Positions 21,473-55,240 of a DNA stretch of 64,000 bases are shown here, piece by piece (within the stretch, counting starts at the first letter, position 1; every line of letters starts with the position of its first letter). Both the position numbers and the translations under genes were made by a program. Origin of the DNA: Flectonema sp. DT1601 (taxonomy: Eukaryota); NCBI GenBank assembly GCA_964019425.1, contig OZ025806.1, positions 682,001 through 746,000 of the forward strand, read 5' to 3'. The notes under the pieces were generated by a model. That model was not told the origin of the DNA and made no database searches. It saw nothing but the letters and a program-made list of their open reading frames with translations.

Positions 21473-21681
21473 AAAACAAAAGACAAGTAATAAAAGAAAG
21501 AAAACATAAAGATGTTGTTGTGGACGAAAGTACACGTACCTGTAAGTGTTGAGTGTCAGCAGATGCCCCGTTTTAAGTTTTTTTAGAAGAATTTTTTTTT
21601 TTCCTTTTTTTTTTTTTCGAGTCTTATTTTTAATCGTATTTTTGTTTTTCTAACCTAACCAGCAATAATAATAAGAAAAAA

Positions 21682-22383
21682 ATGAGAGCAGCCGCGATTA
21701 AATCTATAGTGCAGCCGGGAGCAACAGTAAACAACGTCTTAGCACAAGTGTCGGATCAACTTCCATCACTTGGAAATGGTATTTGGGAAAAATCCGACTA
21801 CAGGAGAGACGATAAGAGAAATGATGAAATATTTTATAAGAAAGCAAGATTCGAACATCACATGCAAGAAGACGGACTTCGTCACCTGTGTGAATACTAC
21901 TCAGCGAATATACCAAATGGGTTAAAACATATTGATGTTTGTTCTTCATTTGATTCTCATTTTAACACATATAAACCAAAATATTGCGTTGGAATCGGTC
22001 TTAACGGAGAAGAACTCGCTAAAAACACTGCGTTGGACTCCTTCACAGTACAAGATTTTAATGCTAACGAAGTAATCCCTTTTAAAGATGATTCTTTTGA
22101 TGTTGCTACTCACGTTGCGTCCATAGAGTATATTGTTAACCCGTTAGTTCATATGGAGCAAGTTCGTAGAGTTCTTGCTCCGTCGTCTACTTGTGTTATT
22201 GCTTTTACTACGAGAGCTTTTTGGACGAAAGCAACTCGGATTTGGAAGCAGTTAGATCACAATCAGCGTGTTGTTTTAGTAGCGTCGTATCTATCTCATG
22301 CTGGTTTTCACGATATAACAGCAGAGGAAATCACACCACCTGGTGTTGATGAGCCAATCGCTGTGGTGTGTGGAAAAGCATAG
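21682..22383 (+). CDS. SAM-dependent methyltransferase (type 11-like)
   Basis: R.D.RNDEIFY..ARF..H, IDVCSSFDSH, GIGLNGEELAKN, PFKDDSFDVATHVASIEY, RRVLAP, RAFWTKA. Confidence 0.88.
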   Translation: MRAAAIKSIVQPGATVNNVLAQVSDQLPSLGNGIWEKSDYRRDDKRNDEIFYKKARFEHHMQEDGLRHLCEYYSANIPNGLKHIDVCSSFDSHFNTYKPKYCVGIGLNGEELAKNTALDSFTVQDFNANEVIPFKDDSFDVATHVASIEYIVNPLVHMEQVRRVLAPSSTCVIAFTTRAFWTKATRIWKQLDHNQRVVLVASYLSHAGFHDITAEEITPPGVDEPIAVVCGKA

Positions 22384-22403
22384 AAACCCCCCCCTAAAAA
22401 AGG

Positions 22404-22558
22404 GTGATGAAGAGAATAGAGGTAGGAGGCATATCGATTGCTCTTGATTTATTATTCTAAGTTGCGCCATCATCCTTAGTCACTGTATCTGAAACTAATG
22501 TTAAATTATCTTTATGTTTTTTTATGATACAACGCGGTTGTAATTTTTACAAAAATTG
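22404..22558 (+). mobile_element. Diverged short 3'-end derivative of the Penelope-like element
   Basis: Aligns to the element's last ~170 nt (tgatga..gagaatagaggta..ctaagttgcg..cttagtcactgtat..aaactaatgttaaattatc). Flanked by near-identical direct repeats aacccccccc(t)aaaaaagg at 22385-22403 and 22559-22576. Confidence 0.85.
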
Positions 22559-22576
22559 AACCCCCCCCAAAAAAGG

Positions 22577-24185
22577 CACCTACAATGGCCCCACCTGCAA
22601 TCCCAACGTTGATGCCAGCAACGATCTCAAAGGTATCACAATTGGAACCTCCGACTGTACATCAAAGTGTGATTCAATCTATGAAAACGATACAATTACC
22701 GATTGTATCACCATTGGATCTGGATCATAATGATGTGGATATGATCGATATGCCGTCACCAGCAACAGTACAACTGGATACGGACACTGACATGGTAATG
22801 GAAACTATGTCACCAGAGACGCAGGAATCACCGGAGCATAGATATGCTGGCTTAATGACTCCATCCAAAGACAGGATGGAGTCACCACCAATAACTCCGA
22901 TTAAGATTAAGACTCCACTGAAAATAAAGACGCCTCTGAAGATCGAAACTCCGACTAAAATAATTCCACAAACCCAACAAGCATGTTGGGATGGAAAGAA
23001 CCTCGAATTAATACGAAGTTTGTCAAAAGAAAGACAGTTGGAGAAAATAGTCACCACATACAGACTAAGATCAACTACACCACAAACAGTAGCCAGGAAG
23101 ATGGAAACACCACCTACTGTAAGCAGTAAAGCCACGAATTCCGGAACAACAATACCGATTACACCACAAAAGGTATCAAGAGTACTAACATACACAGATA
23201 CAGAGAATATCGGTAAAACTTGCAAATATTGCAATAAATCCTGGAAGTCATTTATTGACCATATCAATAAATGTGGAATATTCAGAGCATCAAAAGAATA
23301 TCCAACATATGTTGATGAAGATGATAACACTTCATTTACGGTCACTGAATACAAAACGGATCCTCGAAATAGTATTGTAACTGTTACAAAAGATGAGACA
23401 GAAACTCATATGTTATCTATCAAAAAGAATGGCAAGTTGGCAACACAAACGGTCGCCGATGAACCAGAGAGAAGCAGTAACAAGAGACTGAACTCACAGA
23501 GTCCAATGCGAATTGTGAGAATCAAAAAATACCTGAGCAACCGGAAAAGGCTTAAAAATGAGTGTACTGAACATAAGTTGGCACAGAAAATGAAACTTAA
23601 AGAAGTACAAAAACAGAAATTAGCAAAGGGAAAGGAAAAGAAGAAACTGAAATTGGTAAAAAGACTCAACTCGCAGAGTCCAATGAGACCGATGCTCAGA
23701 AGAAATACTCGAAAGAAAAGAAGCAAACAAGATGAACATGATTCTTCAGATGATATGAGTATTTCACAGAGATCTTCAACTCCAGATATCCCTGATGCTA
23801 AGGAACAATTATCAGACTTTGATAATTAAAAACACTTTCTACATTTATTGTAGAAAAGTGCTCCACTAGTAGTGAGCTACGAACTAGTAACAGCAAAAAA
23901 TATGTTTTTTTATTTATGAACATGAAACACAAAGTAACTACATTCCAGTCCTGCAAACTGGAATGACTCAGTCACAACATTTGACTGACTTACTTCTACA
24001 CCATACTGATGAGAGAGAATAGAGGTAAGAGGTATATGGATTACTCTCGAAACCTATAGTTACTTTAATATGCTAAGTTGCGCATCACCCTTAGTCACTG
24101 TATTTAAAACTAATGTTAAATTATCTTTATGTTTTTATGATACAACACAGTTGTAATTTTTACAAAATCGAACATACATCCCCCC
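22577..24185 (+). repeat. Upstream pseudo-LTR (5'-truncated tandem copy of the element's 3' end)
   Basis: Nearly identical to 30670-32280: about five substitutions and one 1-nt T-run indel seen by eye. Contains ORF 22585-23829, which equals the last 414 aa of the element protein. Confidence 0.95.
24001..24066 (+). ncRNA. Putative hammerhead ribozyme, non-canonical topology (copy 1)
   Basis: CCAUA-CUGAUGA-GAGAG...AGGUA^UAUGG..CUCUC-GAAA-CCU: all core nucleotides are present and stems I, II and III can be paired. Confidence 0.7.
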
Positions 24186-25274
24186 ATCACTCTATGCCCA
24201 GATTTTAGCTTGACTAAAATCCGTTGTGAGTAGAGTACAGTGGTAAGTAACGCAAGAAGACTTACTACAAGTGCAATGCACTTAGGACGTGTATCCATAT
24301 TACGGCATCGTCAATGATGGTTACTATACGTCCAGATGCACAAACTTTTTTGGCAACTTAGCAGCAACAACAGCAGATTAAGTACTATTTATTATAATAA
24401 TATTCCTATTCTTCTTCACTTTAAAATCGGGTGAGTCGCACCACCGTGCTCAGCAGGAGAGGGAGCGAGGGCCCACCAGGGGCTAGTGCCGAAGAGAATA
24501 GGATATATTATTATTTATAAATACACTTACGAATGTATAATCAAATCCGAAAATTGAAAAGGAAAGGAAATGTAGAAATATTTAAGAAAGTGTTTAGTGT
24601 ATGCAGCCCCCTTTTACTTACAATCACAGAGGGTACCGTACAAATTCGATTTTATAATCCAAATCGATAGCTTTAGAATATACCAACCAACAAGGTAGAC
24701 TGCATTAGCTTGGATTCTTTAGTAGGTGCTGAGGCCACGTGATGAACAATCAACCAATTTTATTATACGATAAACCAAAATAAAATAAAATAATGTTAAT
24801 GGAGAAGTCATAAAAAATGAAGCCTATACATCAGTCGATTGATGTAAGTACGTTAAAAAGTCATTGAAAAACAAGGTTCGTAATAGCAATAACACGCACG
24901 CAGACTGACCACTTAATGTACACTCCAAAACCAAATTAATGCGGTGTATGCAACTAGCCAGCAGTAAGATCTTCACCAACAAGCATTGAAAAAACGGGGT
25001 AATGAAATAAGCTGGACATTACGTATATATTTGTATACCGTTAATCTTAGGTAGTATGCTTAATGTAATTAGGTATCATTCTTAGACGCCCAACAAATAG
25101 AAAGCCTCCGAACAACTCGGTAGTTGTAACAAATCTCAAATTAAAACTAAGAAGGATTATAAAGGCTCCCTCTCTTCCCTCCAAAACAACTCAAATAACG
25201 AAAAAACCAAAACACCGGACTGGATCAAGACAAAGGATTTAGATTATACATATAGACCGAAGAGTAGAGTACCA

Positions 25275-28200
25275 ATGTGGTTTGCACAATGGCTAGAAAC
25301 TATTCCAAGGTTTCGAAAAAATTCGAAAAAAGAAGAAAAAAGCAATGGAACTAAAAAGAATGTACCGCAAAGAGTCTCCCAAGGAGCAAAAAGGCACAAA
25401 AAACCGAATCAAAAGGCCCATGATCAAAAGAAATCATACGCGGATATTCTTAAAGGCAAACAAACACATGTAGTTCCGCATGGAAACAGGCAACATGTAA
25501 ACAAACAAGTAGCAAGTAAGCCACGCATTGTTCCGAATAAGATAAAGGAAAAGCAAGTGACACATCAGAAGGTTATCACAGCACCAATTGTCAAAAGTAA
25601 ACCGAAGAGTAAAACTGATAACAATATGATGGTCAGGGCAAAAAATATAAAACCCGGATACGAAAAAAACACAATTAAACGGGGCCGGTCGAACAGACCA
25701 GTTAAAGCTACAGAGAGACAGAAGACGAAGGAACAACCGAAGCCTAAACAAAGGAAAGCTTCGAGTAGAAGTAGATCTAAACCTAAGAATATACAGGTAA
25801 AACTGCAACCTAATACAAAAGGGAGATTGGATCAAACGAACAAAAATTCTAAAAAGAAGAAAAAGGCAAACGAGTTTCAAATAGTACCCGAAAAGGGGAA
25901 GAAAAACAGAAAACCAGTAGTTCATCGCAACAATACTGGCTTCCACAGTGCTGTGTTCAATAGATATGAGATCATTGAACGTGGTGCACGTCGATCAAAA
26001 GATCACGAAGAACAAAGGAGAGAAGCTCTACAAATTTTCAATATAACCCATAAAAAAACATTGGAAGTAGGGCGAAGACATCGACGTATCAGGGAACCTG
26101 TCGACCTTGATTCGGACGAAACAGGAGTAATCTATGCACTCATAGATGAAAAAGGTTCCGCAAGATATGTCGGACAAACCTCCAACACCGCATCACACAG
26201 AGAACGTGGGCATTGGTACTCCCGTCACTCAAAGGGAACAACCATCTCCAAGTTCATTAGAAAAAGAGGAAGTCCTCTATTCGCAGCAACACTGGAAAAA
26301 GTGAACATCTGCAGCAGTTTAATGAAAACTGCATTTCGTACAGCAGCAAATCCGGCAGAATCGTTTTGGATACAGCATCTAAATCCACAAACGAATATGT
26401 TCAGAATGCCAAATAAGGCATATGTCGGAAAGCCACTAAAGACGGGAAGTGAAGTACAAAACCGGAGAATACCGGAAAAACGAGAACCGTCAATCCCAAA
26501 AAAGTGGTATCATTTGGAAGGAGACACTCTGATAGTAGATACTGAACCAGGTAAATACGTTGGTATCAGAAAACAAATACAGAGCCTGATCGACTTACCA
26601 AAGATCAATGAGGATGCTATAGCCAAGTGGTCAATTAATAGAACTCAAAGGTTGCTAGCATGGATCATCGACCATATCCAAGCGTCTCATCAAGAAATTG
26701 ATATCATCAGTCAGATAATCTTAGCACTTAAAGATAGATTATCAGACAAGAAAAAAGATACAGAGACGAAAAGGATATCAAAACTCGGATCAACATGGCT
26801 TAAAATTCGGTTTGTACACCCTTTGATTGAGAAATTGGATCTCAAAAGGGTATTCACATGCAAACAGGCGTTACTCCTCGCCAAAGAACGAGCAGAAATA
26901 CTTCCGACAATGAAAGTGTCAAGATACTTGACAACTAAGTTGGAGGATGTGCTATGTGACCGTGCCAATGATAGTTCAACAGACAACGCACAAGAAGAAC
27001 TATGTGATCCTGAGACATGTAAATGTCATGTATTCATAAAGAAAGAATACAGAGAAGAAGAAAAACATGTGATCACACACTCATCAAAGCTGAATATATC
27101 CAACAGACTTAAGATGTTATTATCGAGAGGTGCTAGATATAGACTCTTTGAGGATCCGAAAACTGTCACGGAAGAAGTAATGTACGCTATAGATGAATAC
27201 ATCATGCATTACTTCCCAGATGAGAAATACGAACCTCTATGTATTTTTTTAAAAAAGGCGGCAAAAAATCAAATCGGAAAGCTACCGCAGATGGATGTTA
27301 TTGATGAATTCAAACAAGTACAGAAGGAACTGAAGGAAATTAAAAAACATTTGATTTTTACCAGAATCGACAAAACGACACACGATCTGGCAGTATGTTG
27401 TAAGAAATACTACAACACAAAACTAAACGAGCACATCGGTAACAGAATTGTGTACGCAGAGGTTCCGAAAGATCAGATAAATCCAACGATGAAAAGGATC
27501 GAAGACATCAACAAGAAACATGGTTTCAGAAATACGGAAAATTTGCCATATTTATATGGAAATCCGAAGATGCATAAAGACCCTCCGAAGTTTAGATTCA
27601 TAGCTGGAACTTCGAACAAAACACTGGATGTCAAATACATCAACTCTAAGGTAATGCCTGCGCCCTTCACAGCCACAACAGACATGTCAAAGGAAATGTC
27701 TGGGATACTTAAGACTTTCATGGAAATAGTTAAAAAAGCTGAAAAAGTGGAATACGAAACAACGAATATAAGAAAGTATTTTATAATTCAGAATGTAGAT
27801 GAAGTTGCACAGTACATCAAAAGCAACTACTCAACTCTCCAACAAATGAAGGTAAAGACATATGATTTCTCAGATATGTACACGAACCTCCCCCATGATA
27901 AGATTAAAAAAGTTATCAACGAATTAATCAGCAAGTACATGGACGGGCAGATAATGGTTAGAGACAAAAGAAGTGGAATTGGTAAAGACTTTTACCTTGA
28001 CAAAAGCTACGATAAAGATGTTCAAGTAGGATACGAAGAGAGCAAAGTTAAAGAATTACTCAGCACGATTCTATCTAATGCTTACATTAAGAATGGAGAA
28101 CTTATGCTCAAACAAAGCCATGGAATACCGATGGGTTCTCAATGCTCACCACATATTGCGAACTTATACTGCTTTGGCATTGAAAAACAATGGGTGGAAA

Positions 28201-31200
28201 ACGTCATTTCACAGAAAGGTATTGGGGCAGCGATAAATAACAAAATCATATTCAGATACATTGATGATTTTTTAATTTTCAGCCACAATGACCCAAGCCC
28301 ACCACCGAGTGAGATGTATAAAATGTCATATACAGATACATCAATGGGCAACAACGATGTAGTATTCCTTGGGATGAGAATCCGGTTGGAAGAAAGGCCG
28401 AGAGGACACCCGTTCGTACGACTTTCAATATGGGATAAAGAAAATCTGTTTAATTTCCAACCCATTAAGTATACCAGTTCGGAATCCAACGCACCGAAAA
28501 GCCTAGGACCAGGTATTCTAAAAGGTGCCATGTACAGAGCCGCTACTAATATCAATAACGATTTCGACTTATACCTTGAAATTGAGAAAGTGCTATACCG
28601 TCTGAGAAGTCGCGGATACTCGAAAAACAGTCTGTTCCCCCAATACAAAGACTTTGTACTGGGTACATACTGGGATTTCCCAAAACAAAGGGAAAGTCTT
28701 CATCATCATTTCTTTGAAATCAATCGGAAATATGACAACGGAAGACCAGTATCGAAAGAAAAACAGACAATCCAACAACATTATAAAGTCAATGGAAGGG
28801 ATGACATTTATAATATGTTGTTGGACAAGAGAATTGGATATGCGAAATTAAGGAGGAATGACAATACATTGGTGACATCATTTAAAATTGCCAGTCAAGC
28901 GATTATTAAAAACAAGAAGGAATGTCAGCAATGCAAAGCTATAATCTCTGACGACACTGAATCACTGGTCAATGATATCAACATTAAATATCACACTGGA
29001 ATATTCAAAACAGCAAAATTCTACAAGGAATTTAAAGAGATATTGCCTATCAATGTCAGTATCCTTTCATACAAAAAGGGTATAACAACTCGAGTAGTAG
29101 TCAACAAAGATAACAATCACGAATGTCACATGTTGATCGGATGTACGGAAGGTGGATTTTTCTTTCCAATTACAGCAAGATACACGGAAAAGGAAATTCA
29201 AAGTCAGCTACTCGAAAAGAAGGATCCAGAAAAATCCGATATCGCTGACAACACGTCGAAAGACTTGAAAGTAGTACAAAAGGAGCAGAAGTCAGAAGAG
29301 TCTGGAAAAACTGAAGTACCAAACGAAGATTATTGGTCCACCTTCATTGATAATAAATTCCCTATTACGATGCACACGCAACCAGCAGAAGGACTTCGTA
29401 GTGGGGAATGTGGCTGGGCAACTGTTAACTTCATAGCAGATCACCTCAAAACTGAAAGAATCAGAATATCAAAGATGTTTAAGATTCAATTCCGACTCGC
29501 AGAGCAAGAGCTTAAGTTAATTGGAGAGAACTTGATGTTCTCATTTAACCCAGATGGTTGGTTTCATCAGATAGTTATTTATGAAACAATAAGAATATAT
29601 CTGGGACTAGAAGTAACACATGTGACAACCCATGAACAGCTGAAAACAATCACAGTAGGTCCAACAGAACAAGAAACTATTGTCATTCCATACATCATAG
29701 TGTCACGTAGAGCAGCCTACACACATTACATCGTCTTTATTGATATAAATTCTAAATACAAGGGATTTGATATAATCAATCCAACTCCAGATTGTAATGG
29801 GATAGAAGATATCATGACGAAGTATCCGTTGAAGGAATACGAATACCACGTTGTAATGAAAACAACGAAAGATATTCCTCCAATAGACTTGTCTGCACTG
29901 GCAATAACAGAGTCACCAGCAAAGGATAATTCCACAACAAAAACTACAGAAGTGGAAATTAAAAAATTCACGGACGAGGAGGATGTAACAGATCTTGAGA
30001 CAATGATTTCGGCAATCGAAAAAGCGGACAAAATGAAGCCCAAATCGACACCGGGAAAAGTCAATAAGATAGAGATAAGGGCCGTATCACCACCAAAGAT
30101 ATGCCAGGATAATATACCGACCCTGTACATATCGCCGATGGTGAAGATACCACCATTACCAGTACTACTATCACCAGTGTTACCAAGACCATCAATAATT
30201 CCAATGACAATACCAATAACGATACCGAAGATAATAAAAATGGAACCTTCGGTAATGCAAAAAATTATATCGCTACCATCAAATAGTTTTCAGAAGACGC
30301 TAGTCACTGTAAATAATGCACTTACGGTAGCCCCACCAGCAATCCCGACATTGATGCCAGCAACGATTTCAAAGGTATCACAATTGGCACCGCCGACTGT
30401 ACTTCAAAAGAAGACACAAGTCATTGCAAATGATGAACTCACACAGGTCCCGCCGATAATTCCAACAATGATACCAACACCAATTACAAATTTATCACAA
30501 TCGACACCGTCAATTGTACTTCAAAAGAATACACAAGTCAGTGCGAGTGATGCACTTACACAGGCCCCGCCGATAATTCCAACGCTGATGCCAGCAAGGA
30601 TTTCAAAAATATCACAATTAGCACCGCCGACTGTAATTCAGAAGAAGACACAAGTTATTGCAAATGAGACACCTACAATGGCCCCACCTGCAATCCCAAC
30701 GTTGATGCCAGCAACGATCTCAAAGGTATCACAATTGGAACCTCCAACTGTACATCAAAGTGTGATTCAATCTATGAAAACGATACAATTACCGATTGTA
30801 TCACCATTGGATCTGGATCATAATGATGTGGATATGATCGATATGCCGTCACCAGCAACAGTACAACTGGATACGGACACTGACATGGTAATGGAAACTA
30901 TGTCACCAGAGACGCAGGAATCACCGGAGCATAGATATGCTGGCGTAATGACTCCATCCAAAGACAGGATGGAGTCACCACCAATAACTCCGATTAAGAT
31001 TAAGACTCCACTGAAAATAAAGACGCCTCTGAAGATCGAAACTCCGACTAAAATAATTCCACAAACCCAACAAGCATGTTGGGATGGAAAGAACCTCGAA
31101 TTAATACGAAGTTTGTCAAAAGAAAGACAGTTGGAGAAAATAGTCACCACATACAGACTAAGATCAACTACACCACAAACAGTAGCCAGGAAGATGGAAA

Positions 31201-31922
31201 CACCACCTACTGTAAGCAGTAAAGCCACGAATTCCGGAACAACAATACCGATTACACCACAAAAGGTATCAAGAGTACTAACATACACAGATACAGAGAA
31301 TATCGGTAAAACTTGCAAATATTGCAATAAATCCTGGAAGTCATTTATTGACCATATCAATAAATGTGGAATATTCAGAGCATCAAAAGAATATCCAACA
31401 TATGTTGATGAAGATGATAACACTTCATTTACGGTCACTGAATACAAAACGGATCCTCGAAATAGTATTGTAACTGTTACAAAAGATGAGACAGAAACTC
31501 ATATGTTATCTATCAAAAAGAATGGCAAGTTGGCAACACAAACGGTCGCTGATGAACCAGAGAGAAGCAGTAACAAGAGACTGAACTCACAGAGTCCAAT
31601 GCGAATTGTGAGAATCAAAAAATACCTGAGCAACCGGAAAAGGCTTAAAAATGAGTGTACTGAACATAAGTTGGCACAGAAAATGAAACTTAAAGAAGTA
31701 CAAAAACAGAAATTAGCAAAGGGAAAGGAAAAGAAGAAACTGAAATTGGTAAAAAGACTCAACTCGCAGAGTCCAATGAGACCGATGCTCAGAAGAAATA
31801 CTCGAAAGAAAAGAAGCAAACAAGATGAACATGATTCTTCAGATGATATGAGTATTTCACAGAGATCTTCAACTCCAGATATCCCTGATGCTAAGGAACA
31901 ATTATCAGACTTTGATAATTAA
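25275..31922 (+). CDS. PLE polyprotein: basic N-terminus, GIY-YIG endonuclease, CxC linker, reverse transcriptase, OTU-like remnant, Josephin-like protease, 39-aa repeats, C2HC zinc finger
   Basis: GVIYALID..ARYVGQT..HRERGH..AESFWIQHL..N (26124-26397); TCKCH (~27015-27029); RT motifs PYLYGNPKMHK..FRFI, TYDFSDMYTNLPH, GIPMGSQCSPHIANLY, FRYIDD (YIDD at 28257-28268), VFLGM; CKYCNKSWKSFIDHINKC. Confidence 0.93.
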   Translation: MWFAQWLETIPRFRKNSKKEEKSNGTKKNVPQRVSQGAKRHKKPNQKAHDQKKSYADILKGKQTHVVPHGNRQHVNKQVASKPRIVPNKIKEKQVTHQKVITAPIVKSKPKSKTDNNMMVRAKNIKPGYEKNTIKRGRSNRPVKATERQKTKEQPKPKQRKASSRSRSKPKNIQVKLQPNTKGRLDQTNKNSKKKKKANEFQIVPEKGKKNRKPVVHRNNTGFHSAVFNRYEIIERGARRSKDHEEQRREALQIFNITHKKTLEVGRRHRRIREPVDLDSDETGVIYALIDEKGSARYVGQTSNTASHRERGHWYSRHSKGTTISKFIRKRGSPLFAATLEKVNICSSLMKTAFRTAANPAESFWIQHLNPQTNMFRMPNKAYVGKPLKTGSEVQNRRIPEKREPSIPKKWYHLEGDTLIVDTEPGKYVGIRKQIQSLIDLPKINEDAIAKWSINRTQRLLAWIIDHIQASHQEIDIISQIILALKDRLSDKKKDTETKRISKLGSTWLKIRFVHPLIEKLDLKRVFTCKQALLLAKERAEILPTMKVSRYLTTKLEDVLCDRANDSSTDNAQEELCDPETCKCHVFIKKEYREEEKHVITHSSKLNISNRLKMLLSRGARYRLFEDPKTVTEEVMYAIDEYIMHYFPDEKYEPLCIFLKKAAKNQIGKLPQMDVIDEFKQVQKELKEIKKHLIFTRIDKTTHDLAVCCKKYYNTKLNEHIGNRIVYAEVPKDQINPTMKRIEDINKKHGFRNTENLPYLYGNPKMHKDPPKFRFIAGTSNKTLDVKYINSKVMPAPFTATTDMSKEMSGILKTFMEIVKKAEKVEYETTNIRKYFIIQNVDEVAQYIKSNYSTLQQMKVKTYDFSDMYTNLPHDKIKKVINELISKYMDGQIMVRDKRSGIGKDFYLDKSYDKDVQVGYEESKVKELLSTILSNAYIKNGELMLKQSHGIPMGSQCSPHIANLYCFGIEKQWVENVISQKGIGAAINNKIIFRYIDDFLIFSHNDPSPPPSEMYKMSYTDTSMGNNDVVFLGMRIRLEERPRGHPFVRLSIWDKENLFNFQPIKYTSSESNAPKSLGPGILKGAMYRAATNINNDFDLYLEIEKVLYRLRSRGYSKNSLFPQYKDFVLGTYWDFPKQRESLHHHFFEINRKYDNGRPVSKEKQTIQQHYKVNGRDDIYNMLLDKRIGYAKLRRNDNTLVTSFKIASQAIIKNKKECQQCKAIISDDTESLVNDINIKYHTGIFKTAKFYKEFKEILPINVSILSYKKGITTRVVVNKDNNHECHMLIGCTEGGFFFPITARYTEKEIQSQLLEKKDPEKSDIADNTSKDLKVVQKEQKSEESGKTEVPNEDYWSTFIDNKFPITMHTQPAEGLRSGECGWATVNFIADHLKTERIRISKMFKIQFRLAEQELKLIGENLMFSFNPDGWFHQIVIYETIRIYLGLEVTHVTTHEQLKTITVGPTEQETIVIPYIIVSRRAAYTHYIVFIDINSKYKGFDIINPTPDCNGIEDIMTKYPLKEYEYHVVMKTTKDIPPIDLSALAITESPAKDNSTTKTTEVEIKKFTDEEDVTDLETMISAIEKADKMKPKSTPGKVNKIEIRAVSPPKICQDNIPTLYISPMVKIPPLPVLLSPVLPRPSIIPMTIPITIPKIIKMEPSVMQKIISLPSNSFQKTLVTVNNALTVAPPAIPTLMPATISKVSQLAPPTVLQKKTQVIANDELTQVPPIIPTMIPTPITNLSQSTPSIVLQKNTQVSASDALTQAPPIIPTLMPARISKISQLAPPTVIQKKTQVIANETPTMAPPAIPTLMPATISKVSQLEPPTVHQSVIQSMKTIQLPIVSPLDLDHNDVDMIDMPSPATVQLDTDTDMVMETMSPETQESPEHRYAGVMTPSKDRMESPPITPIKIKTPLKIKTPLKIETPTKIIPQTQQACWDGKNLELIRSLSKERQLEKIVTTYRLRSTTPQTVARKMETPPTVSSKATNSGTTIPITPQKVSRVLTYTDTENIGKTCKYCNKSWKSFIDHINKCGIFRASKEYPTYVDEDDNTSFTVTEYKTDPRNSIVTVTKDETETHMLSIKKNGKLATQTVADEPERSSNKRLNSQSPMRIVRIKKYLSNRKRLKNECTEHKLAQKMKLKEVQKQKLAKGKEKKKLKLVKRLNSQSPMRPMLRRNTRKKRSKQDEHDSSDDMSISQRSSTPDIPDAKEQLSDFDN
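30315..30760 (+). repeat. About four tandem ~117-nt (39-aa) Pro/Thr-rich repeats inside the PLE ORF
   Basis: Repeated APP(A/I)IPTLMPA(T/R)ISK(V/I)SQL(A/E)PPTV.QK.TQV.A.D/E units. Confidence 0.85.
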
Positions 31923-32280
31923 AAACACTTTCTACATTTATTGTAGAAAAGTGCTCCACTAGTAGTGAGCTACGAACTAGTAACAGCAAAAAATATGTTT
32001 TTTTTATTTATGAACATGAAACACAAAGTAACTACATTCCAGTCCTGCAAACTGGAATGACTCAGTCTCAACATTTGACTGACTTACTTCTACACCATAC
32101 TGATGAGAGAGAATAGAGGTAAGAGGTATATGGATTACTCTCGAAACCTATAGTTACTTTAATATGCTAAGTTGCGCATCACCCTTAGTCACTGTATTTA
32201 AAACTAATGTTAAATTATCTTTATGTTTTTATGATACAACACAGTTGTAATTTTTACAAAATCGAACATACAACCCCCCC
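30670..32280 (+). repeat. Downstream pseudo-LTR / 3' end of the full-length PLE
   Basis: Matches 22577-24185; ends ...atcgaacatacaaccccccc. Confidence 0.95.
32095..32160 (+). ncRNA. Putative hammerhead ribozyme, non-canonical topology (copy 2)
   Basis: Identical to 24001-24066; CUGAUGA at 32100-32106, GAAAC at 32143-32147, predicted cut after A32128. Confidence 0.7.
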
Positions 32281-32374
32281 GAGTGAACTTACTTTTATTT
32301 ATTATCTGCTGGTTTACTTCACTTCGTTCCATACTTTCCGATAGCGATGTCTGTTTAGTTTTTTTTGGTAAGAA

Positions 32375-32574
32375 NNNNNNNNNNNNNNNNNNNNNNNNNN
32401 NNNNNNNNNNNNNNNNNNNNNNNNNNNNNNNNNNNNNNNNNNNNNNNNNNNNNNNNNNNNNNNNNNNNNNNNNNNNNNNNNNNNNNNNNNNNNNNNNNNN
32501 NNNNNNNNNNNNNNNNNNNNNNNNNNNNNNNNNNNNNNNNNNNNNNNNNNNNNNNNNNNNNNNNNNNNNNNNNN
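32375..32574. other. Assembly gap (200 N)
   Basis: Run of N. Confidence 0.99.
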
Positions 32575-34305
32575 CTGCTGCATAAAATCCGGAGCCCAAG
32601 CAGCCAACTCTGTCTAGATCAGCAAAGGAATGTACATCAACTGGAGATGAGTTGTGTGTTAATGTGAGGTGTCCAGTAGATCCGGTCTGCTCAGCTGATT
32701 ACGCAGTAGCTTTGAAGTTTATGCGGAACAAAATATAAAAGACACAATTGAATTATGTCAATGTCTCGGTTCTGAATTTGTTGTTGTGAGAGCCGTTCTC
32801 GCATCTACTACTGCGTTCACAGTACTCAATATAGGAAATGGGAACTCATTTGAAATTAACGGTGATCCTACTACTCGTACTTACCCATACGTCACTTGTG
32901 AGCAACTCGCTAGATGCGAACCACCTTCGGCACTAGACGATGTTTATTATTATAAAACTGTACCACCTAGTTGTACTGCTACTATCGACTGTGCTAAGGG
33001 AAGAGAAGGCCAGGAAGCACTGCTATGTAAACAAACAACATTCATTGATAAAAAAGGGATCACAATGTACACTTGATCAGAGAGATCACTTTTGTGATGC
33101 CGAATTCAGAGCACACACCTGTGCAAGAATGTGATGGCGGCCTTAAACGCGACGATGAAAGTCTGCGCAACAGGGGCAGGTGCGTCGCAGGATTGGAAAA
33201 AAGTGATTGCCAGGGAGGTTACTACTGTCCTGATATTTACGCTGAGCTATCAGATTTGGGTATCCCCGCTCATGAGTCTTGTCTCGTGTGTGAAAAAAAC
33301 AACCCAAATGCATTATGTTGCACAAGAGACGGAAAATCCTTTCCGGTAGTTTCACGTGAAGAGTGCAACGGTCATGGATCACTTCTTTGTTCAGATGTTT
33401 CTTGTGTTACAGAAAGCACCCCAACGGAATGCTCTATCGAAAGTAGTGAGGCAGCAGCACTTCACCTTCAACATCAACAAAGTGTTTGTGGATGTCTAGG
33501 TCTCGGTTATTCTGTCATATATGATCAAGGAACTCCTTACTGCTATGATGACTCAACACTAAAAAAATGGGACGACTACTCAGAAAGAGAACTCGGTAAC
33601 AGAACCTACTCTGTCAGCTGTGAACAGTTAGTTGAGTGTGAGACTCTTTCTGCTCTCGATAAGGCTGAGGTGACGATGTCATTCACTGAACCAATATGCT
33701 CCCCTTATACTGCTTGTAGAATTCGTAGAGCAAGAGAAAAAAAGCTTGCGACCAAGCTCTCAAACGTCTTTGGTGGTTCCAAACAATGCAGCAGCGCTCA
33801 ACGTGACAGCTATGCCGGTCTTGAAACCAACGCTCTTAAGTGTCTATCATGTCCAGGAACTCATAATTTAACGAGTAAGGTTTGTGTATCGAAAACTACT
33901 TGGCCAGCAAGCTGCGAAGAAGCCGCAACAGAAGCAGAGTGTGGGGACTCAGGTTACTTTTGTGCGACATTGTATAAAGACAAGTTTGATAGTTTATCCC
34001 TCTGCACAGCATGCCCAGGAGGTTTAAACCCGGAAACAAACACTTGTGCCACACCAGATGGTCGTTGTATTGTAGGATCTGATGAGGGTAGCTGTTCGGG
34101 AGTCTTCTGCAGAGCAATTTTCGGTGCTGCTTCTAACTATAACGGATTAGATCATGTGCTTGTGGGTGATTCACCTTCTCAGAATATCGGTCCATTCGTC
34201 CTTCTGGCATTCGCTATTATTGTTGTCGCAGTGTTAGTTTATGCAATTTTGACGAAGAGGAAGCAGATTGAAAAAGAAGAGGCACTTGCTCAACAGAATC
34301 AGTAA
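32575..34305 (+). pseudogene. Cys-rich repeat surface/membrane protein, frameshifted (pseudogene or sequence errors), 5' end lost in the gap
   Basis: Internally repeated units (RTYPYVTCEQLARCE..SALD / RTYSVSCEQLVECE..SALD; QCTLDQRD / QCSSAQRD) fall in different frames, implying shifts near 32720, 33030-33060 and 33120. C-terminal TM segment FVLLAFAIIVVAVLVYAIL. Confidence 0.6.
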
Positions 34306-35723
34306 TCGTACGCCGACTTATTTAATTCAGGAATCCATGTGCGCGGTACTCTATCGCACTGCATTGAATCATGTGCCTCACTATTAGGTCACCAACCTGT
34401 TGTCAGAACAATAACAGCATCACGTTGCAAGAGTCGACGTCGATAAATGATGTGATAGTAGTTGTAGTAGTATTTTTTTTTTTTTTTTTTTTTGTACAGT
34501 AAGGCACATACACCCCACCCTGAAAAAAAACAAAAAAAACAAAACAAAAAACAAAATCATCGTTTAGTCATGTGGTTCGAATACACACTATGTCTACCTA
34601 AGTATTAACCCACCCCGTCACTGGATGGCAAATTTATTTTTCCCTTACCAGGAAGATTTTTCTGTGAATTGTGAAAAAAGAAGAGCACAATACTACCGTC
34701 CGGCACAGTTATGACCATAAACTGACTGTCATCTTACCTGATCCTTTTGTTTTCATTTCTTGCTGAGTGACGTGGCTATGTGCTGCCCAATTTTTGTAAT
34801 ACTTTTATAAAGCTTTTCGGTAATCCCACAGTACAATTATAATGCTTTGGGCAACTGGGTGAACGGTCCTCGGTACTGTTCCGGGGGGTTTCTATTTTCT
34901 TTCGTGGTATGTGGGCATCTGGCACATATGGTCGTATTGTAAAGAGAGATATTGTATATGGAATAAAAAAGATTTTTTTTTTGTTTTTTCCACCTTCCAC
35001 CACTCCCAGATCATTTCCATTTTATTTTTTTTAGTTGTTTTCAACCTGTTAGCCTCTGGGCAAAGTGGGAGCTGGGAGTCGATCACTTCCAGCCGAAGCT
35101 ATAAAACTACAATCGTCGTGATTGGGTTCTTACTGATGCGGGATACCCAGACCCCTCGTAGTCATCAGTTCTGTATTTTGCGAACTAACAAACTAACTAA
35201 CAATACAATTAAAAAAAAAAAAGTAAAAAAATAAAAACCCCCGCTAGTAAAAATAATAGTTTGAATAAAAGACGTGGATTACGAAATTAGTTTAGCCATG
35301 TGGTGTGTACGAAATCAACGTGAAAAAAAAAAAAAAATTGAAGAACTTGTCTACTGTTGTTTCCTCCACTGCGATATATAGATATTTATTTGTCCACATG
35401 CCCCGCATACCGTAGGGAAAAAAAGAACCAACGCAGTATAGAAAAGAAAGAAACAATATGTGAAAAGTGTAAAGTGAAGCACCACATCTTTTATTCATTT
35501 GGTCTGACTCCCGTTATCTTGTTTCCCTGCCTTCCACCAAACCCGTAAGTTTTGATTCGATTTGCATGAGTAAATTTTATTTATGTTATTAATGATGGGT
35601 AATTCATTGTTTTATTTATACAGATGAAAAAAGATAATTTTATTTACGAACAGTAATTAAAAAAAAAGAGGTAAGCCACGCGCCTTCTACACTATGAAAT
35701 CATTCTCCCCCTTCAGTTTAATA

Positions 35724-35888
35724 GAGGTAAGAGGTATATGGATTGACTCTCGAAACCTAAATAGTTACTTTAAAAGGCTAAGTTACGCATCACACCTAGT
35801 CACTGTATCTAAAACTAATGTTAAATTATCGTTGATGTTGTTTATGATGCAATACATTTGTATTTTACGTACAAAATCAAACAGTTAA
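35724..35888 (+). mobile_element. Short 3'-end derivative of the PLE with an 18-bp target-site duplication
   Basis: Aligns to the PLE 3' end (gaggtaagaggtatatggatt..ctctcgaaacct..ctagtcactgtat.taaaactaatgttaaattatc). Exact direct repeat tcccccttcagtttaata at 35706-35723 and 35889-35906. Confidence 0.92.
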
Positions 35889-35948
35889 TCCCCCTTCAGT
35901 TTAATATGAAATAATTAATTAGATAGGGAAAGTAATTTGTACTGCACG

Positions 35949-37106
35949 ATGACTGAAACTCTGACAATAACAGAATCGCTGTCGAAGTCGATATCAGAGT
36001 CAGCGTTGGTTAGCCTTTCAGAGACTTTACCAACTGCGAGCTTATCAGAGACGCTACGAACATTAACGTCAACACCGACATCCTCAAAAACAAATACGTT
36101 TTCTTTATCATCAAGTCAGTCTTTATCAGAAACTATTGCACAAGAAGACCTTCGATGGTGTGATTTCTACTTAGGAGACACGCTAATTAGCTGTACGCTG
36201 TTATCATTGTTGGTTGCTGCCGGAGGACTTATTTTAATATTGTGTTGTATCTGTTGCTGTGCTTTGTTTTGTTATAAAAGGAAAAAAGTAACTAAAGATG
36301 GTTCCTATGATGAGATGCTCTTATCAAGTGATAAGGGAAGTAATTCAACGGAAAAGCAAAGAGAAGTTGCTCAAAAACCTCCAGTTCCTCAAGAAGTTGG
36401 TACCAAATCACCAGAGGCGGTTGGTGCGTTTACTAATAATTATCATCCTGTTCAGCAACCTCCTCAGCAAAAGATACCCGGGATCGTAAGAGTTTATGAA
36501 AAAGGAGGAGCAAATGAGGGTGACTACGTTATAAGTTCACTCTCAGTTAACTCCCTTCCAACATGGAAACGGACAGTTCCAACAGAACGGTGGGTTTACA
36601 GTTCACCAGATGGCTTTTGGAGGATAACTGATACTGCGAAAGACTTTGAAACTGGAAAAGGATTTGTCACATCATCGCATCCCCACGGAGGTGAACCACC
36701 AAGCCGCTCTGAGGGTTGGTTTAGTGCAAACGGTCAACCATTAAATATTAATATGACACCTGAGGAATATAAGCAAACCCCCGCAAAACAGTATCACTCT
36801 CCATTTCCTGTTTCAGCTCAACCAGCAGTTACTCCTCCTGTTGTATCTCCCATGCCAGTTATTGCTCCACCTGAAGAGCAATATCAACACTTGTCTCCGT
36901 ATCAACAATATGCTGGTAACAAGTCTTTGACACCTATTCAAAGTAATAATCCAATACTGCCTCCAATTATCCCGTATGAGGCTCCAAAACCATTGTCACC
37001 AGTTGATCATACAACACTTTATAATTTATCGAATTATGATAATGATATCTATCTTCATGACGACAGTGATAGTGAAGAGCCTGATGGGTTCAGAAGAAGG
37101 GCGTAG
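35949..37106 (+). CDS. Single-pass membrane protein: Ser/Thr-rich N-terminus, TM segment with Cys cluster, one W/H-rich beta-type domain, Pro-rich tail
   Basis: TM LLSLLVAAGGLILILCCICCCALFC followed by KRKK; the domain GDY...NSLPTWK..RWVYS.PDGFW.ITD...HGGEPP also recurs in 59045-62638. Confidence 0.7.
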   Translation: MTETLTITESLSKSISESALVSLSETLPTASLSETLRTLTSTPTSSKTNTFSLSSSQSLSETIAQEDLRWCDFYLGDTLISCTLLSLLVAAGGLILILCCICCCALFCYKRKKVTKDGSYDEMLLSSDKGSNSTEKQREVAQKPPVPQEVGTKSPEAVGAFTNNYHPVQQPPQQKIPGIVRVYEKGGANEGDYVISSLSVNSLPTWKRTVPTERWVYSSPDGFWRITDTAKDFETGKGFVTSSHPHGGEPPSRSEGWFSANGQPLNINMTPEEYKQTPAKQYHSPFPVSAQPAVTPPVVSPMPVIAPPEEQYQHLSPYQQYAGNKSLTPIQSNNPILPPIIPYEAPKPLSPVDHTTLYNLSNYDNDIYLHDDSDSEEPDGFRRRA

Positions 37107-47156: not shown

Positions 47157-47607
47157 GGTTTTCTGATATTTGGTGTAACACTGGGATCACTGAGTCCACT
47201 CAGAGGGTGAGAACAAAAAAAAAAAAAAAAATAAGATAAAATAACACAAACACCTTGTCCCACATTAATGATTAACAAGATTTGTCCAGCAGCCAAAAAA
47301 AAAAAAAAAAAAGTGCCATCTTAACCACATTCTTTCACTCTTTCACGATCCAGCATACTAAAGGGCACTCTCCGTTGTGTAATATATTTTATTTGCAATT
47401 TAAGCTTGGATGGGAGTTAGTAGTTTTTCCAGACCTTTTTAAGATTCTAACTATTATGTTGAGATAACTAAGACATCTCTTTTCCCCTTTTCAACATTGT
47501 TAATGTTATTTTTTTGCAACAGACTGCCGTAATTCTTGTTTCGCTTTGTTTCATCGTATTCTTTAGACGGATGTTTATTAATCACCCTTCTCAGTTGTAG
47601 TTCAGTG

Positions 47608-50600
47608 ATGTATTCCAGGACTGCATTGTTGGTAGCACTCGTGATAGTTGAAGTTATCGGCAATCATGTGAATAGCTCACTTCTCTTGAATAGTACAGCA
47701 GCTTTAGGTGTAACAAAATCTGGGGAATTTACGTTCAACGTTTCTGGTGTAGTTGGGAACGTTACGTCAAGTAGGGTGATTAATAATACTGTTGTCGGGT
47801 CGCTAAACATTACATCCGTAGCTGATAATGGTACAGCAGCTCCTTTGGGCTTTACGGGATCGTCTTGGAATGGAGCTGGTGGTGCTCTTTTAAACTTCAC
47901 TTCGGCGCTCAATAACACAGCGGGTGACATCGTCGTAGGTACTGCATCATCGAATTCAACAGCAGGTTTCAACCGTACGAATTTGTTGTCGAACTTTACT
48001 GCCGCACCTTCGAATTTCACACCTTGGAACTTCATGGGAACGCCTTGGAACCTCACAGCCGCATCTTCGAATTTCACAGCACCTTGGAACTTCACGGCAC
48101 CACCTAACAATTTCACAGCGCCTTGGAACTTCACAGCACCGCCTTCCAATTTCACAGCGCCTTGGAACTTCACAGCACCGCCTTCCAATTTCACAGCGCC
48201 TTGGAACTTCACAGCACCGCCTTCCAATTTCACAGCGCCTTGGAACTTCACTTCCAACTTCACGGCAGCACTTTGGAACTTCACGGCACCACCTAACAAT
48301 TTCACAGCGCCTTGGAACTTCACTTCCAATTTCACAGCATCGCCTTCCAACTTCACAGCAACACCTTGGAACTTCACAGCATCGCCTTCCAACTTCACAG
48401 CAGCACCTTCCAACTTCACAGCATCGCCTTCCAACTTCACAGCAACACCTTGGAACTTCACAGCATCGCCTTCCAACTTCACAGCAGCACCTTCCAACTT
48501 CACAGCATCGCCTTCCAACTTCACAGCAACACCTTGGAACTTCACAGCATCGCCTTCCACAGAGGCACCTGTTAGTGCTACTGCTGCACCAATCAACGTT
48601 ACTGGTTCACCAATCCCTATGACTAGTGTTCCAACAAGTAACCCCACGGCGTCACCTTTTAAAGGCACAGCTGTTCCTTCTGATAGTTTTACAAGCAGTC
48701 CTACATCAGTTCCTTTAGACGTTACAAGATCGCCGTCCAGTATACCGTCAGCAGCTCCTTCTGGCGTTACAGATTCCTGTGATAAGTGTTCATCTATTCA
48801 AAGATGTGTTGTTCTTGTTGATGGACAAGTTACTTGTCACAATCTTGATGAGTGTTCAATTAAGAGAAGGTTATCCAACCTGATTGATTGTACTTCACCA
48901 GACATCTGTAAGATGCTACCTATTGGACTACCGTCGTGTACTCGACCACTTGATGATAACGATTGCAACAAGAGATGTATTTCAAAAGGGTTGGTCTGTA
49001 ATAGTGACATGAAATGTGTTGTCGATAAGTGTATTGATTTTGTGTGGCCTCCAGAAGGAATTGAGTTTTGTGATGCTTTAGGAAAATGTTCATCTGGTAA
49101 AAAGTGTACAGGATGTACATCATCAGTTACTTGTGACAGTACCGGATCCTTTGTACAAAGTAATGACTGTAGACCAACTTGTGAAAGTATTTCATTTGAG
49201 TGTGTTCCTAACCAGATGAAACATCGGACTTCAGAAGAAATATCAACCTGCTGCACGTCATCAGGTATCGGATGTGTTTCCTTTGATTGCTACAACTCCG
49301 AAACAACAGAAAACTGGTCAAGTGATCAACTATCCTATTGCTGTAATTCTACTGGAAGAGGATGTCTATCAAGTGATGTGTTTAACTGTTTTGATAGCGA
49401 TCCTCGTAGTTGGTCGTTCTTAAAAAGTAGCTGGTGCTGCAAATATAAATCAATTGCCTGTCCATCAGTTGGAACCCATTGCAATACAACACGGAATGAA
49501 TTAACTAAAGATCAATCTGATTATTGTTGTAAAACATCTGGGAAGGGTTGTACTACTGACAACGGGTACGACTGTACTTGGGACAGCACTACAACATCAC
49601 CTTGGGACAGTAAACACAGAAGATGGTGTTGTGCGAGAAAAGGTATTCGATGTCCGGCGTCTGATCCATTTGAGTGCCATATCAACACTTCAACATACAG
49701 TGATAACCAAAGAGCATGGTGTTGTTCAAATAAGAACATTGGTTGCGAGTATCAGTGTCAGCTAACTACCAAAGAAATAAATAAATTACCAGACAGTCAT
49801 AAATCGTATTGCTGTTTACATTTTGATGTCGGGTGTAAGTCGAATAAAGAACAAATAAACTGCTACGATTCATCACATGAATGGGATACAAAACAAAAAG
49901 AATATTGTTGTTTAACAAACAACATTGGATGTTCGACTAACTGCAATGTTGCAAAAGGATTACTATCGCAAAGTCAATTAAAGGAATGCTGTGACACCAA
50001 AGGCATTCATTGCCAATCATCGAAAACTACATTCAAGACTGATGGTGTCGAACAACGAATATTGTTTAAATCATCTTGGGATCAGCTTTCTAAAAATCCG
50101 TTACGGTTTGTTCAACTGTGTCGTTCAGCGATGATCTTATCTTCAAAAGTTTTACAAAGAAACCCATCACTTCTAACTGTTACATATGCAGGAATGCTGA
50201 AATCACATTTTGAAATCCCAACTAAAGACATGACAGACAATTGGGGATACCTCGCTCAATCAAATTGGAATGTCGATACTCCCTCGTTAATAACATTCTT
50301 ACAGAGTGGTGTACTGCAATCGAGTCATACTGTCAACAGGTTGTCACGGATTGGAAAATTTAAAAACCATGATGACGAGTACGTCATGGTAAGTTACTAC
50401 GTTGAAGGATCAAACAGCGAAATCGCATCCATCACAGCCGATCTTGAGAATGGAAAGGAAACTATTTTCCTTTCAAACAATGAGGGGTACACGATGATTC
50501 TGGCAGATGCCAAGATCGAAGTTATTGTTTCCGATCCTCCAAAAACACCGAAAAAGTCATCAAAATTTCGATTGTGGTTTATCGCGATGCCATTATTAAG

Positions 50601-50796
50601 TATCTTTACAATTGGAAGTTTAATCGGAGCTTACATCGTACGGAGAAGGCAAAAACAAGAACGACCAAAACGAAACGACAAACATAAAGAGCTACAAGAC
50701 GCTACTGATATGGAGCTGGAGTTCGAAATGGAAGATGATGATGATGATGATGACACCTTAAGGTCTGTTGAAGTTATAATGATTGGCAATATATGA
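47608..50796 (+). CDS. Type I membrane glycoprotein with N-F-T sequon repeats and Cys-rich (W..CC...GxGC) repeats
   Basis: Signal peptide MYSRTALLVALVIVEVIG; NFT repeat block; about eight to nine CC-x3/4-GxGC-type units; TM LWFIAMPLLSIFTIGSLIGAYIV followed by RRR. Confidence 0.8.
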   Translation: MYSRTALLVALVIVEVIGNHVNSSLLLNSTAALGVTKSGEFTFNVSGVVGNVTSSRVINNTVVGSLNITSVADNGTAAPLGFTGSSWNGAGGALLNFTSALNNTAGDIVVGTASSNSTAGFNRTNLLSNFTAAPSNFTPWNFMGTPWNLTAASSNFTAPWNFTAPPNNFTAPWNFTAPPSNFTAPWNFTAPPSNFTAPWNFTAPPSNFTAPWNFTSNFTAALWNFTAPPNNFTAPWNFTSNFTASPSNFTATPWNFTASPSNFTAAPSNFTASPSNFTATPWNFTASPSNFTAAPSNFTASPSNFTATPWNFTASPSTEAPVSATAAPINVTGSPIPMTSVPTSNPTASPFKGTAVPSDSFTSSPTSVPLDVTRSPSSIPSAAPSGVTDSCDKCSSIQRCVVLVDGQVTCHNLDECSIKRRLSNLIDCTSPDICKMLPIGLPSCTRPLDDNDCNKRCISKGLVCNSDMKCVVDKCIDFVWPPEGIEFCDALGKCSSGKKCTGCTSSVTCDSTGSFVQSNDCRPTCESISFECVPNQMKHRTSEEISTCCTSSGIGCVSFDCYNSETTENWSSDQLSYCCNSTGRGCLSSDVFNCFDSDPRSWSFLKSSWCCKYKSIACPSVGTHCNTTRNELTKDQSDYCCKTSGKGCTTDNGYDCTWDSTTTSPWDSKHRRWCCARKGIRCPASDPFECHINTSTYSDNQRAWCCSNKNIGCEYQCQLTTKEINKLPDSHKSYCCLHFDVGCKSNKEQINCYDSSHEWDTKQKEYCCLTNNIGCSTNCNVAKGLLSQSQLKECCDTKGIHCQSSKTTFKTDGVEQRILFKSSWDQLSKNPLRFVQLCRSAMILSSKVLQRNPSLLTVTYAGMLKSHFEIPTKDMTDNWGYLAQSNWNVDTPSLITFLQSGVLQSSHTVNRLSRIGKFKNHDDEYVMVSYYVEGSNSEIASITADLENGKETIFLSNNEGYTMILADAKIEVIVSDPPKTPKKSSKFRLWFIAMPLLSIFTIGSLIGAYIVRRRQKQERPKRNDKHKELQDATDMELEFEMEDDDDDDDTLRSVEVIMIGNI
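47990..48560 (+). repeat. Coding minisatellite (18-21 nt units, aa(c/t)ttcacagc...)
   Basis: Tandem ccttggaacttcacagca / ccttccaa(c/t)ttcacagca units encoding PWNFTA and PSNFTA. Confidence 0.92.
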
Positions 50797-51428: not shown

Positions 51429-51551
51429 GCACCGACGAAGTCGGAGAAGAAACTATTCTGATTAATAGCCGTTTACTTATTAAGTCAAATGTTATCTATT
51501 TCCCCGCGTCAGTAGTAATATTTTGTGCGAATATAAGGCTTATCTGCATGG
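51429..51551. repeat. T-tract-embedded dispersed repeat family, copy A
   Basis: ccgacgaagtcggagaagaaactattctgatt...taaggcttatctgcatgg, flanked by T runs. Confidence 0.8.
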
Positions 51552-51791: not shown

Positions 51792-51910
51792 TTTCTTCTC
51801 CGACGTAGTCGGAGAAGAAACTATTCAGATTATGGCCGACAGTTATTTGTTTTCACCTGTGCGACAGGGAGCTGTCTGCGTTCAACGAAAAGTAAGGCTA
51901 ATCTGAATGG
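51792..51910. repeat. T-tract-embedded dispersed repeat family, copy B
   Basis: ccgacgtagtcggagaagaaactattcagatt...taaggctaatctgaatgg, flanked by T runs. Confidence 0.8.
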
Positions 51911-55167: not shown

Positions 55168-55240
55168 TACCGACGCAGTCGAAGAAGAAACTATTCAGAT
55201 TGAAAGCCGTTGTTTCGTATTGGTCATTATCTGAAATGGG
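55168..55240. repeat. T-tract-embedded dispersed repeat family, copy C (in a 3' UTR)
   Basis: ccgacgcagtcgaagaagaaactattcagatt...ttatctgaaatggg. Confidence 0.75.

Follow-up and report, generated by a model that had tools for sequence, protein, structure and literature searches.

A predicted Josephin-fold cysteine protease domain downstream of the reverse transcriptase in a Chlamys-type Penelope-like element of Flectonema

According to our analysis, the long ORF of a Penelope-like element (PLE) in Flectonema sp. DT1601 carries, downstream of its reverse transcriptase (RT), a cysteine protease domain with an intact Cys-His-Asp triad, which is predicted to adopt the Josephin fold. We propose, with a probability of about 0.6, that this domain is an active deubiquitinase (DUB), which strips ubiquitin from the protein or particle of the element itself and in this way delays its proteasomal destruction. 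The window, that is the whole stretch of DNA analysed, is 64 kb long, and all coordinates below refer to it.

The element and its reading frame

The element and the parts of its ORF, including the protease, are located as follows.

24186..32279, + strand: full-length Chlamys-type PLE unit of about 8.1 kb (5' region, ORF, 3' UTR)
25275..31922, + strand: single uninterrupted ORF of 2215 aa (ORF listing)
26124..26387, + strand: N-terminal GIY-YIG endonuclease, aa 284-371 (Pfam, under the curated cut-off)
27018..27026, + strand: CxC motif, C582-K-C584, a mark of Naiad/Chlamys elements (motif reading)
27708..28289, + strand: reverse transcriptase core, Pfam RVT_1, aa 812-1005 (E 2.4e-7 and motifs)
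28800..29210, + strand: inserted domain, ~aa 1176-1312 (about 135 aa), between RT and protease
29358..29864, + strand: predicted Josephin-fold cysteine protease domain, ~aa 1362-1530 (alignment and predicted fold)
30341..30759, + strand: 117-nt tandem repeat, in frame, 3.6 copies, encoding a Pro/Thr-rich stretch
31314..31367, + strand: putative zinc finger CxxC-x9-H-x3-C near the C-terminus (sequence; no Pfam match of note)

The endonuclease was matched at E 0.089 with the whole ORF and at E 0.0026 with this part alone, both below the Pfam curated cut-off. Only one Cys in total occurs in aa 1-400, so the CX2-5CxxC linker and the CCHH motif are absent from the endonuclease, whereas the Naiad-type controls P0002-P0004 do carry the linker/CCHH Cys motifs, a difference by which Chlamys and Naiad are told apart. 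A DK at aa 699 lies, like CxC, between GIY-YIG and RT, and the RT itself shows the motifs YDFSD 863, PMGS 952 and YIDD 995. An N-terminal GIY-YIG without linker and CCHH, together with CxC and DK before the RT, marks Chlamys PLEs (PMC8557442, partial text), and this combination therefore identifies the element as a Chlamys-type PLE, an assignment which rests on domain marks, likeness to the Chara RT and endonuclease being judged by eye.

The inserted domain between RT and protease is common to the homologue P0049 and missing from the Flectonema relative P0040. A motif recognised by eye and a weak Atlas lead (rank 6, score 0.85, sub-threshold at <0.9, cluster 19% OTU) suggest that it is possibly a degenerate OTU fold. 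Behind the protease, Pro, Glu, Ser and Thr make up 39% of the tail (aa 1541-1990).

The protease domain and its catalytic triad

An earlier note on this DNA had set the domain at 29358..29800, fused downstream of the RT. The domain is indeed there, but its true end is at ~29864, and a cut at 29800 loses the last strand; likewise, it does lie downstream of the RT (384 aa past the YIDD motif), but the ~135 aa of another domain intervene. The motifs quoted in that note are found in the sequence, where the landmarks are H1367, E1378-C1379-G-W-A, N1385, G-W-F 1428-1430, H1484-Y1485 and D1499. The proposed triad of C1379 (TGT, 29409), H1484 (CAT, 29724) and D1499 (GAT, 29769) is in frame in ORF 25275-31922, with the C-H spacing of 105 and the H-D spacing of 15 that had been compared with ataxin-3, whose triad we take to be C14/H119/N134. 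When the ORF was shuffled 2000 times, 4.5% of the products also had a Cys followed by His at +105 and by Asp or Asn a further 15 residues on, so the spacing by itself is weak evidence, and it is the conservation of the triad together with the predicted fold that carries the case beyond chance.

This conservation was followed in alignment A4, which has 12 rows, query included, at 19-55% identity to the query; it omits near-duplicates and the extra cluster members P0034, P0046-P0050 and P0054, and a catalytically dead Diplonema row is trimmed ahead of the His column. Among the rows that cover each position, 9 of 10 have the Cys, the exception being the Diplonema row with Ser; 8 of 8 have the His and 8 of 8 the Asp, which stands at His+15 except in P0044, where it is at His+16. 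All three catalytic positions occur together in every one of the six full-domain rows, down to 19% identity. As N1502 is variable, D1499 is the third triad residue. In alignment A3 the Asp of distant members is three columns off; A4 was picked over it for folding because there His and Asp are in register.

The Josephin oxyanion hole is formed by a Gln ahead of the Cys. No invariant counterpart of it was found in A4: Q1369 is variable, residue 1372 is Glu or Gln in 9 of 10 rows and otherwise Lys, and all nine rows that cover H1367 retain it. The Glu/Gln at 1372 or H1367 might take over this role. An aromatic residue (Tyr or Trp) follows the catalytic His in 8 of 8 A4 rows, and the query has Y1485 after H1484, that is, an aromatic of the 'gatekeeper' type described at this place for conventional DUBs (10.1101/2024.07.24.604956, partial text).

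Predicted fold

A single-sequence fold of the domain was unusable (pLDDT 31); AlphaFold2 with A4 gave a model with pLDDT 87.4 and pTM 0.85 (five models, 67-87), in which the Cys begins a helix, the His begins a strand and the Asp lies just past the next strand. The Foldseek check of such a model, as the earlier note had advised, put ataxin-3/ATXN3L Josephins in the first three places against the PDB (E 2-3e-5, TM 0.55-0.58), followed by the C39 peptidase ComA and JOSD2, each at E 9e-5; against viral models, an Orpheovirus Josephin came second. A search independent of Foldseek, over 48,161 chains, had Josephin-family structures at all of ranks 1-5 and then C39 at Z 8.2, an order that agrees with the one from VIA-align. 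The best matches of the model were ATXN3L (Z 12.3, rmsd 2.9, 145 residues aligned) and JOSD2 (Z 12.2, rmsd 3.1, 132 aligned), and in VIA-align these were followed by ataxin-3 at 11.5-10.1, bacterial Josephins at 9.1-8.7 and C39-type folds at no more than 8.7. The domain is thus predicted to adopt the Josephin fold at 14-16% sequence identity to Josephins, and the reading of it as Josephin-like in the earlier note was right.

Profile methods gave less. The Pfam Josephin family (PF02099), which the note had named as a check, left the domain unmatched at E up to 10, and one of the 12 alignment members matches it at E 0.21. Of the three profile searches against the PDB, the one with A1 reached ATXN3L at E 0.13; A2 and A4 retrieved no Josephin, the best A2 matches being designed TIM-barrel repeats that we judged spurious, and neither did phmmer against the PDB with the domain, P0044 or P0043.

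Two other fold families were considered and rejected. The E-C-G-W-A motif presumably resembles that of C39 peptidases, which also provide the top Atlas leads (0.89, with all Atlas scores <0.9). C39 domains (ComA, PCAT1) share a compact papain-like fold with our model (Foldseek E 9e-5, Z 7.7-8.7), but differ in lower Z (8.2 against 12.3 for Josephin), rmsd of ~4.3 vs 2.9, fewer aligned residues and the bacterial ABC-transporter/leader peptide context, the context here being a retroelement ORF. A VTD deubiquitinase was rejected since its Asp-x-His motif is absent, the conserved Asp being 15 residues after the His; VTD folds gave Z 7.3-8.0.

Compared with Josephin/MJD domains (ataxin-3, ATXN3L, JOSD2; PF02099), the domain has the same Asn six residues after the Cys, G-aromatic-F, His-aromatic and third residue at His+15, and those domains differ in having Asn for Asp, a shorter loop ahead of the Cys and the oxyanion Gln, and in not being part of a retrotransposon ORF. 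The bacterial Josephins and clippases (PcJOS, BpJOS, PaJOS, SnJos; Z 8.7-9.1 in the 48,161-chain search) also have a divergent Josephin fold; they are effectors, with 7-12% identity to the domain. Their rank right behind the eukaryotic Josephins bears on an alternative in which the domain would be an active DUB or ubiquitin-like-modifier protease directed at targets in the host (factors of chromatin, silencing or repair at the insertion site), including a destructive 'clippase' mode. The fold evidence for it is identical to that for a deubiquitinase acting in cis; PaJOS, too, has an Asp in third place (C66/H187/D203), many clippases keep the aromatic too (10.1101/2024.07.24.604956, partial text), and the folds of UFSP and of SUMO proteases are among the matches, at Z 7.3-7.6. 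Conventional eukaryotic Josephins are nevertheless ahead of the bacterial ones by ~3 Z units, and nothing in this analysis indicates a host target, so we regard this alternative as unlikely.

Homologues and fusion to the reverse transcriptase

HMMER, run in full over 1.84 billion representatives, returned 12 matches at E<=0.001, of which 11 carry the shared motifs; P0045 (E 6e-4) was dropped as a repeat-driven false match, and P0053 was added by profile search. A word-seeded homologue search with the domain among proteins of 1218-3877 aa confirmed none of 55 candidates. A source is named for P0038 and P0052 (both Diplonema papillatum) and for P0040 (a transcript of Flectonema neradi); Flectonema itself is a diplonemid.

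The F. neradi protein has an RT, 30% identical to the query RT, running straight into the N-terminal half of the domain, its sequence stopping ahead of the His column. RT sequence is likewise joined to the domain in P0039, and fusion to RT is present in at least one other lineage.

The 770-aa predicted protein P0052 of D. papillatum has no RT match. It has Ser at the Cys column and, in the untrimmed alignment, Gln at the His column; this catalytically dead copy may be a domesticated or decayed derivative. If the query domain were of the same sort, a remnant of a past capture or a module that binds ubiquitin without any enzymatic function, the variable oxyanion Gln would be understandable, as would four distant homologues (P0042, P0043, P0044, P0053) whose RT linkage is not demonstrated. 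With the triad complete in all six full-domain rows of A4, an intact ORF and nearly identical copies of the 3' end of the element, we find this very improbable, the most so of the readings weighed here.

Comparison with known systems

To a Josephin in PLEs, of which the earlier note knew no case, there is a precedent: Craig et al. 2021 reported a Josephin-like motif in three Chlamys families of Chara braunii, Chlamys-1_cBra, -4_cBra and -6_cBra (PMC8557442, partial text), so that the combination of a Josephin with a Chlamys PLE is already published. The claim made there was one of 'weak homology', without a structure. The Chara elements share with ours the N-terminal GIY-YIG without CCHH and linker, CxC, DK and a long single ORF, whose C-terminal extension contains the Josephin-like motif and, behind it, repeats and a Cys/His motif (PMC8557442, partial text). 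By eye, Cys-Gly-x-Ala-x-x-Asn, Gly-Gly-Phe, His-Tyr and an Asn at His+15 can be read after the RT in the consensus of Chlamys-1_cBra, where their order and slot match those of our element. The differences are Asn as the third residue in Chara vs Asp here; the His twelve residues ahead of the Cys and the Glu-Cys-Gly-Trp, found here and not seen by eye in the Chara sequence; the extra domain between RT and protease, present here and not in Chara; element ends at C-runs here vs (TA)n or (CA)n in Chara Chlamys; and a euglenozoan-like host vs a streptophyte. We infer that the Chara and Flectonema fusions share common descent.

Josephin-related cysteine proteases are also known from Dualen/RandI non-LTR elements (Kojima and Fujiwara 2005, via PMC8557442, PMC9977147 and PMC13405545, partial texts). 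The Josephin-type domain is there too a part of a retroelement RT ORF, and its proposed role is against protein degradation; Dualen differs in being a LINE with APE and RLE nucleases, and in the N-terminal position of the domain, which is downstream of the RT here (PMC13405545, partial text). Helitrons carry OTU and VTD domains (PMC6431247, PMC9741609, partial texts), VTD being a family of DUBs of which the members from viruses and transposons are described as cleaving ubiquitin chains (PMC9741609, partial text).

A search with the RT region yielded, from 4303 candidates, three proteins (P0002, P0003, P0004), all Naiad-type with the Cys linker and each representing a cluster of 9-14 members. 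Their ORFs of ~1300 aa consist of GIY-YIG, CxC, RT and then an intact-looking USP/UCH domain. The C-terminal USP is matched in Pfam at E 1e-33 to 3e-24 and has both Cys and His boxes. Judging from these three Naiad-type clusters, the slot after the RT can hold another class of deubiquitinase. We found no literature report of a deubiquitinase in Naiad PLEs. A literature search outside Repbase, Dfam and subscription journals likewise found no report of PLEs in diplonemids, and the word 'Penelope' is absent from the main text of the D. papillatum genome paper.

Proposed function

Between the two functions put forward in the earlier note, deubiquitination and processing of the polyprotein, the former is favoured. 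In the mechanism that we propose, the Josephin-fold domain would remove ubiquitin from the protein of the element itself, which is rich in Lys (11.5%) and has the P/E/S/T-rich tail, proteasomal destruction of the protein or particle would be delayed, and the particle performing target-primed reverse transcription would last longer. Catalytic activity, ubiquitin as the substrate and action in cis are in this way the inferred parts of a proposal whose other parts are the observed architecture, triad and RT fusion and the predicted fold. A comparable role has been proposed, not demonstrated, for the Dualen and Helitron domains (PMC8557442, PMC9741609, partial texts), and Josephins are known as slow enzymes (PMC10643670). 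The domain would be an accessory module, since most Naiad/Chlamys elements are without it.

Cutting in cis of the 2215-aa polyprotein, which would release the endonuclease and RT from the long low-complexity tail, seems quite improbable to us, less likely than action on host targets. The ORF does have an unusual length and several domains, the DUBs of viruses often double as polyprotein processors that act at di-glycine sites (PMC9741609, partial text), the family next in fold is that of the C39 double-glycine peptidases, and the lone Gly-Gly of the ORF (1293-1294) occurs also in the relative P0049. This one Gly-Gly compares, however, with 2.5 expected and lies inside the upstream domain, and P0040 has no Gly-Gly from RT to protease, an argument which presumes Gly-Gly specificity; moreover, most Naiad/Chlamys elements transpose without a protease (PMC8557442, partial text).

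Returning to deubiquitination, we may tentatively suggest, at somewhat less than even odds, that PLEs with an N-terminal endonuclease possess a swappable deubiquitinase slot after the RT, and ubiquitin-dependent destruction of RT particles would then be a general, unrecognised host defence against PLEs, which they have repeatedly countered. In a Chlamys lineage that would span both streptophytes and euglenozoans, the slot would be occupied by a divergent subfamily of Josephins (His-x11-Cys, Glu-Cys-Gly-Trp, Asp triad); some Naiads would have a USP there, and the present element possibly also a dead, OTU-like module that binds ubiquitin.

What is added here is the fold-level support, the intact triad, the diplonemid relatives and the USP Naiads with an equivalent slot. 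A 'weak homology' remark on one alga becomes a domain structurally supported by a predicted model, ready for expression and assay, and the range of Josephin-bearing Chlamys PLEs is likely extended to euglenozoans. Together with the USP Naiads, it suggests that PLEs recruited deubiquitinases repeatedly, as Dualen LINEs and Helitrons did, which points to a control of retrotransposons at the level of the protein, by the proteasome. Unusual chain specificities and clippase tools have, besides, already come from divergent Josephins.

Insertion, copies and genomic surroundings

Three further copies of the 3' end of the element are present in the window.

22568..24185, + strand: pseudo-LTR (pLTR), a 5'-truncated upstream copy of the element 3' end in partial tandem
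22405..22554, + strand: short diverged 3'-end fragment, 82%, flanked by near-perfect TSD-like direct repeats with a C-run
35720..35894, + strand: second short 3'-end fragment, 87%, with a ~16-nt flanking direct repeat starting with a C-run

The pLTR (22568-24185) is 99.4% identical to 30661-32279, with five differences in 1603 core columns, and this partial tandem arrangement at such identity points to a recent insertion. The 5' end of the element (24186) was inferred from where the upstream pLTR copy ends, and its 3' UTR stops at a C-run. Partial tandem pLTR, 5' truncation and an insertion bias towards (C)n or (CA)n are typical of Chlamys, and all three are found here, the bias as C-runs at four ends within the 64-kb window. 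Rfam gave no match at E<=1 in 21500-37000, and the hammerhead ribozyme core pattern occurred at chance level and nowhere within the element, in agreement with Chlamys, which usually go without a canonical hammerhead. A 200-N assembly gap at 32375-32574, ~95 nt past the 3' end, leaves the right flank of the element incomplete.

Elsewhere, none of 47 and none of 480 metagenome pattern matches to the element locus was confirmed, nor any of the viral contigs (0 of 8 and 0 of 1). One sequencing run (share 0.07) had four short near-identical pieces, none of them covering the protease. A sigma-70 promoter scan was set aside as irrelevant to a eukaryote.

Of 26 stop-to-stop ORFs of at least 240 aa in the window, 25 lie on the + strand, with poly-T/poly-A spacers, which fits the unidirectional gene clusters of euglenozoans (PMC10161547, partial text). 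Among the host genes are those for a formin, Ku, methyltransferase proteins and proteins of the RRM and CCCH types. At 51432-51457, 51800-51825 and 55170-55195, T-rich tracts are directly followed by a 26-nt motif that contains a short inverted repeat; against these three copies there were none in 100 shuffles, for a pattern derived from the copies themselves, and it is possibly a small dispersed element or an RNA-processing signal. The ORF at 47533-50796 (1087 aa) contains Cys-rich repeats, 21-nt repeats with many N-glycosylation sequons and, at its C-terminus, a hydrophobic segment, and its product is likely a surface glycoprotein.
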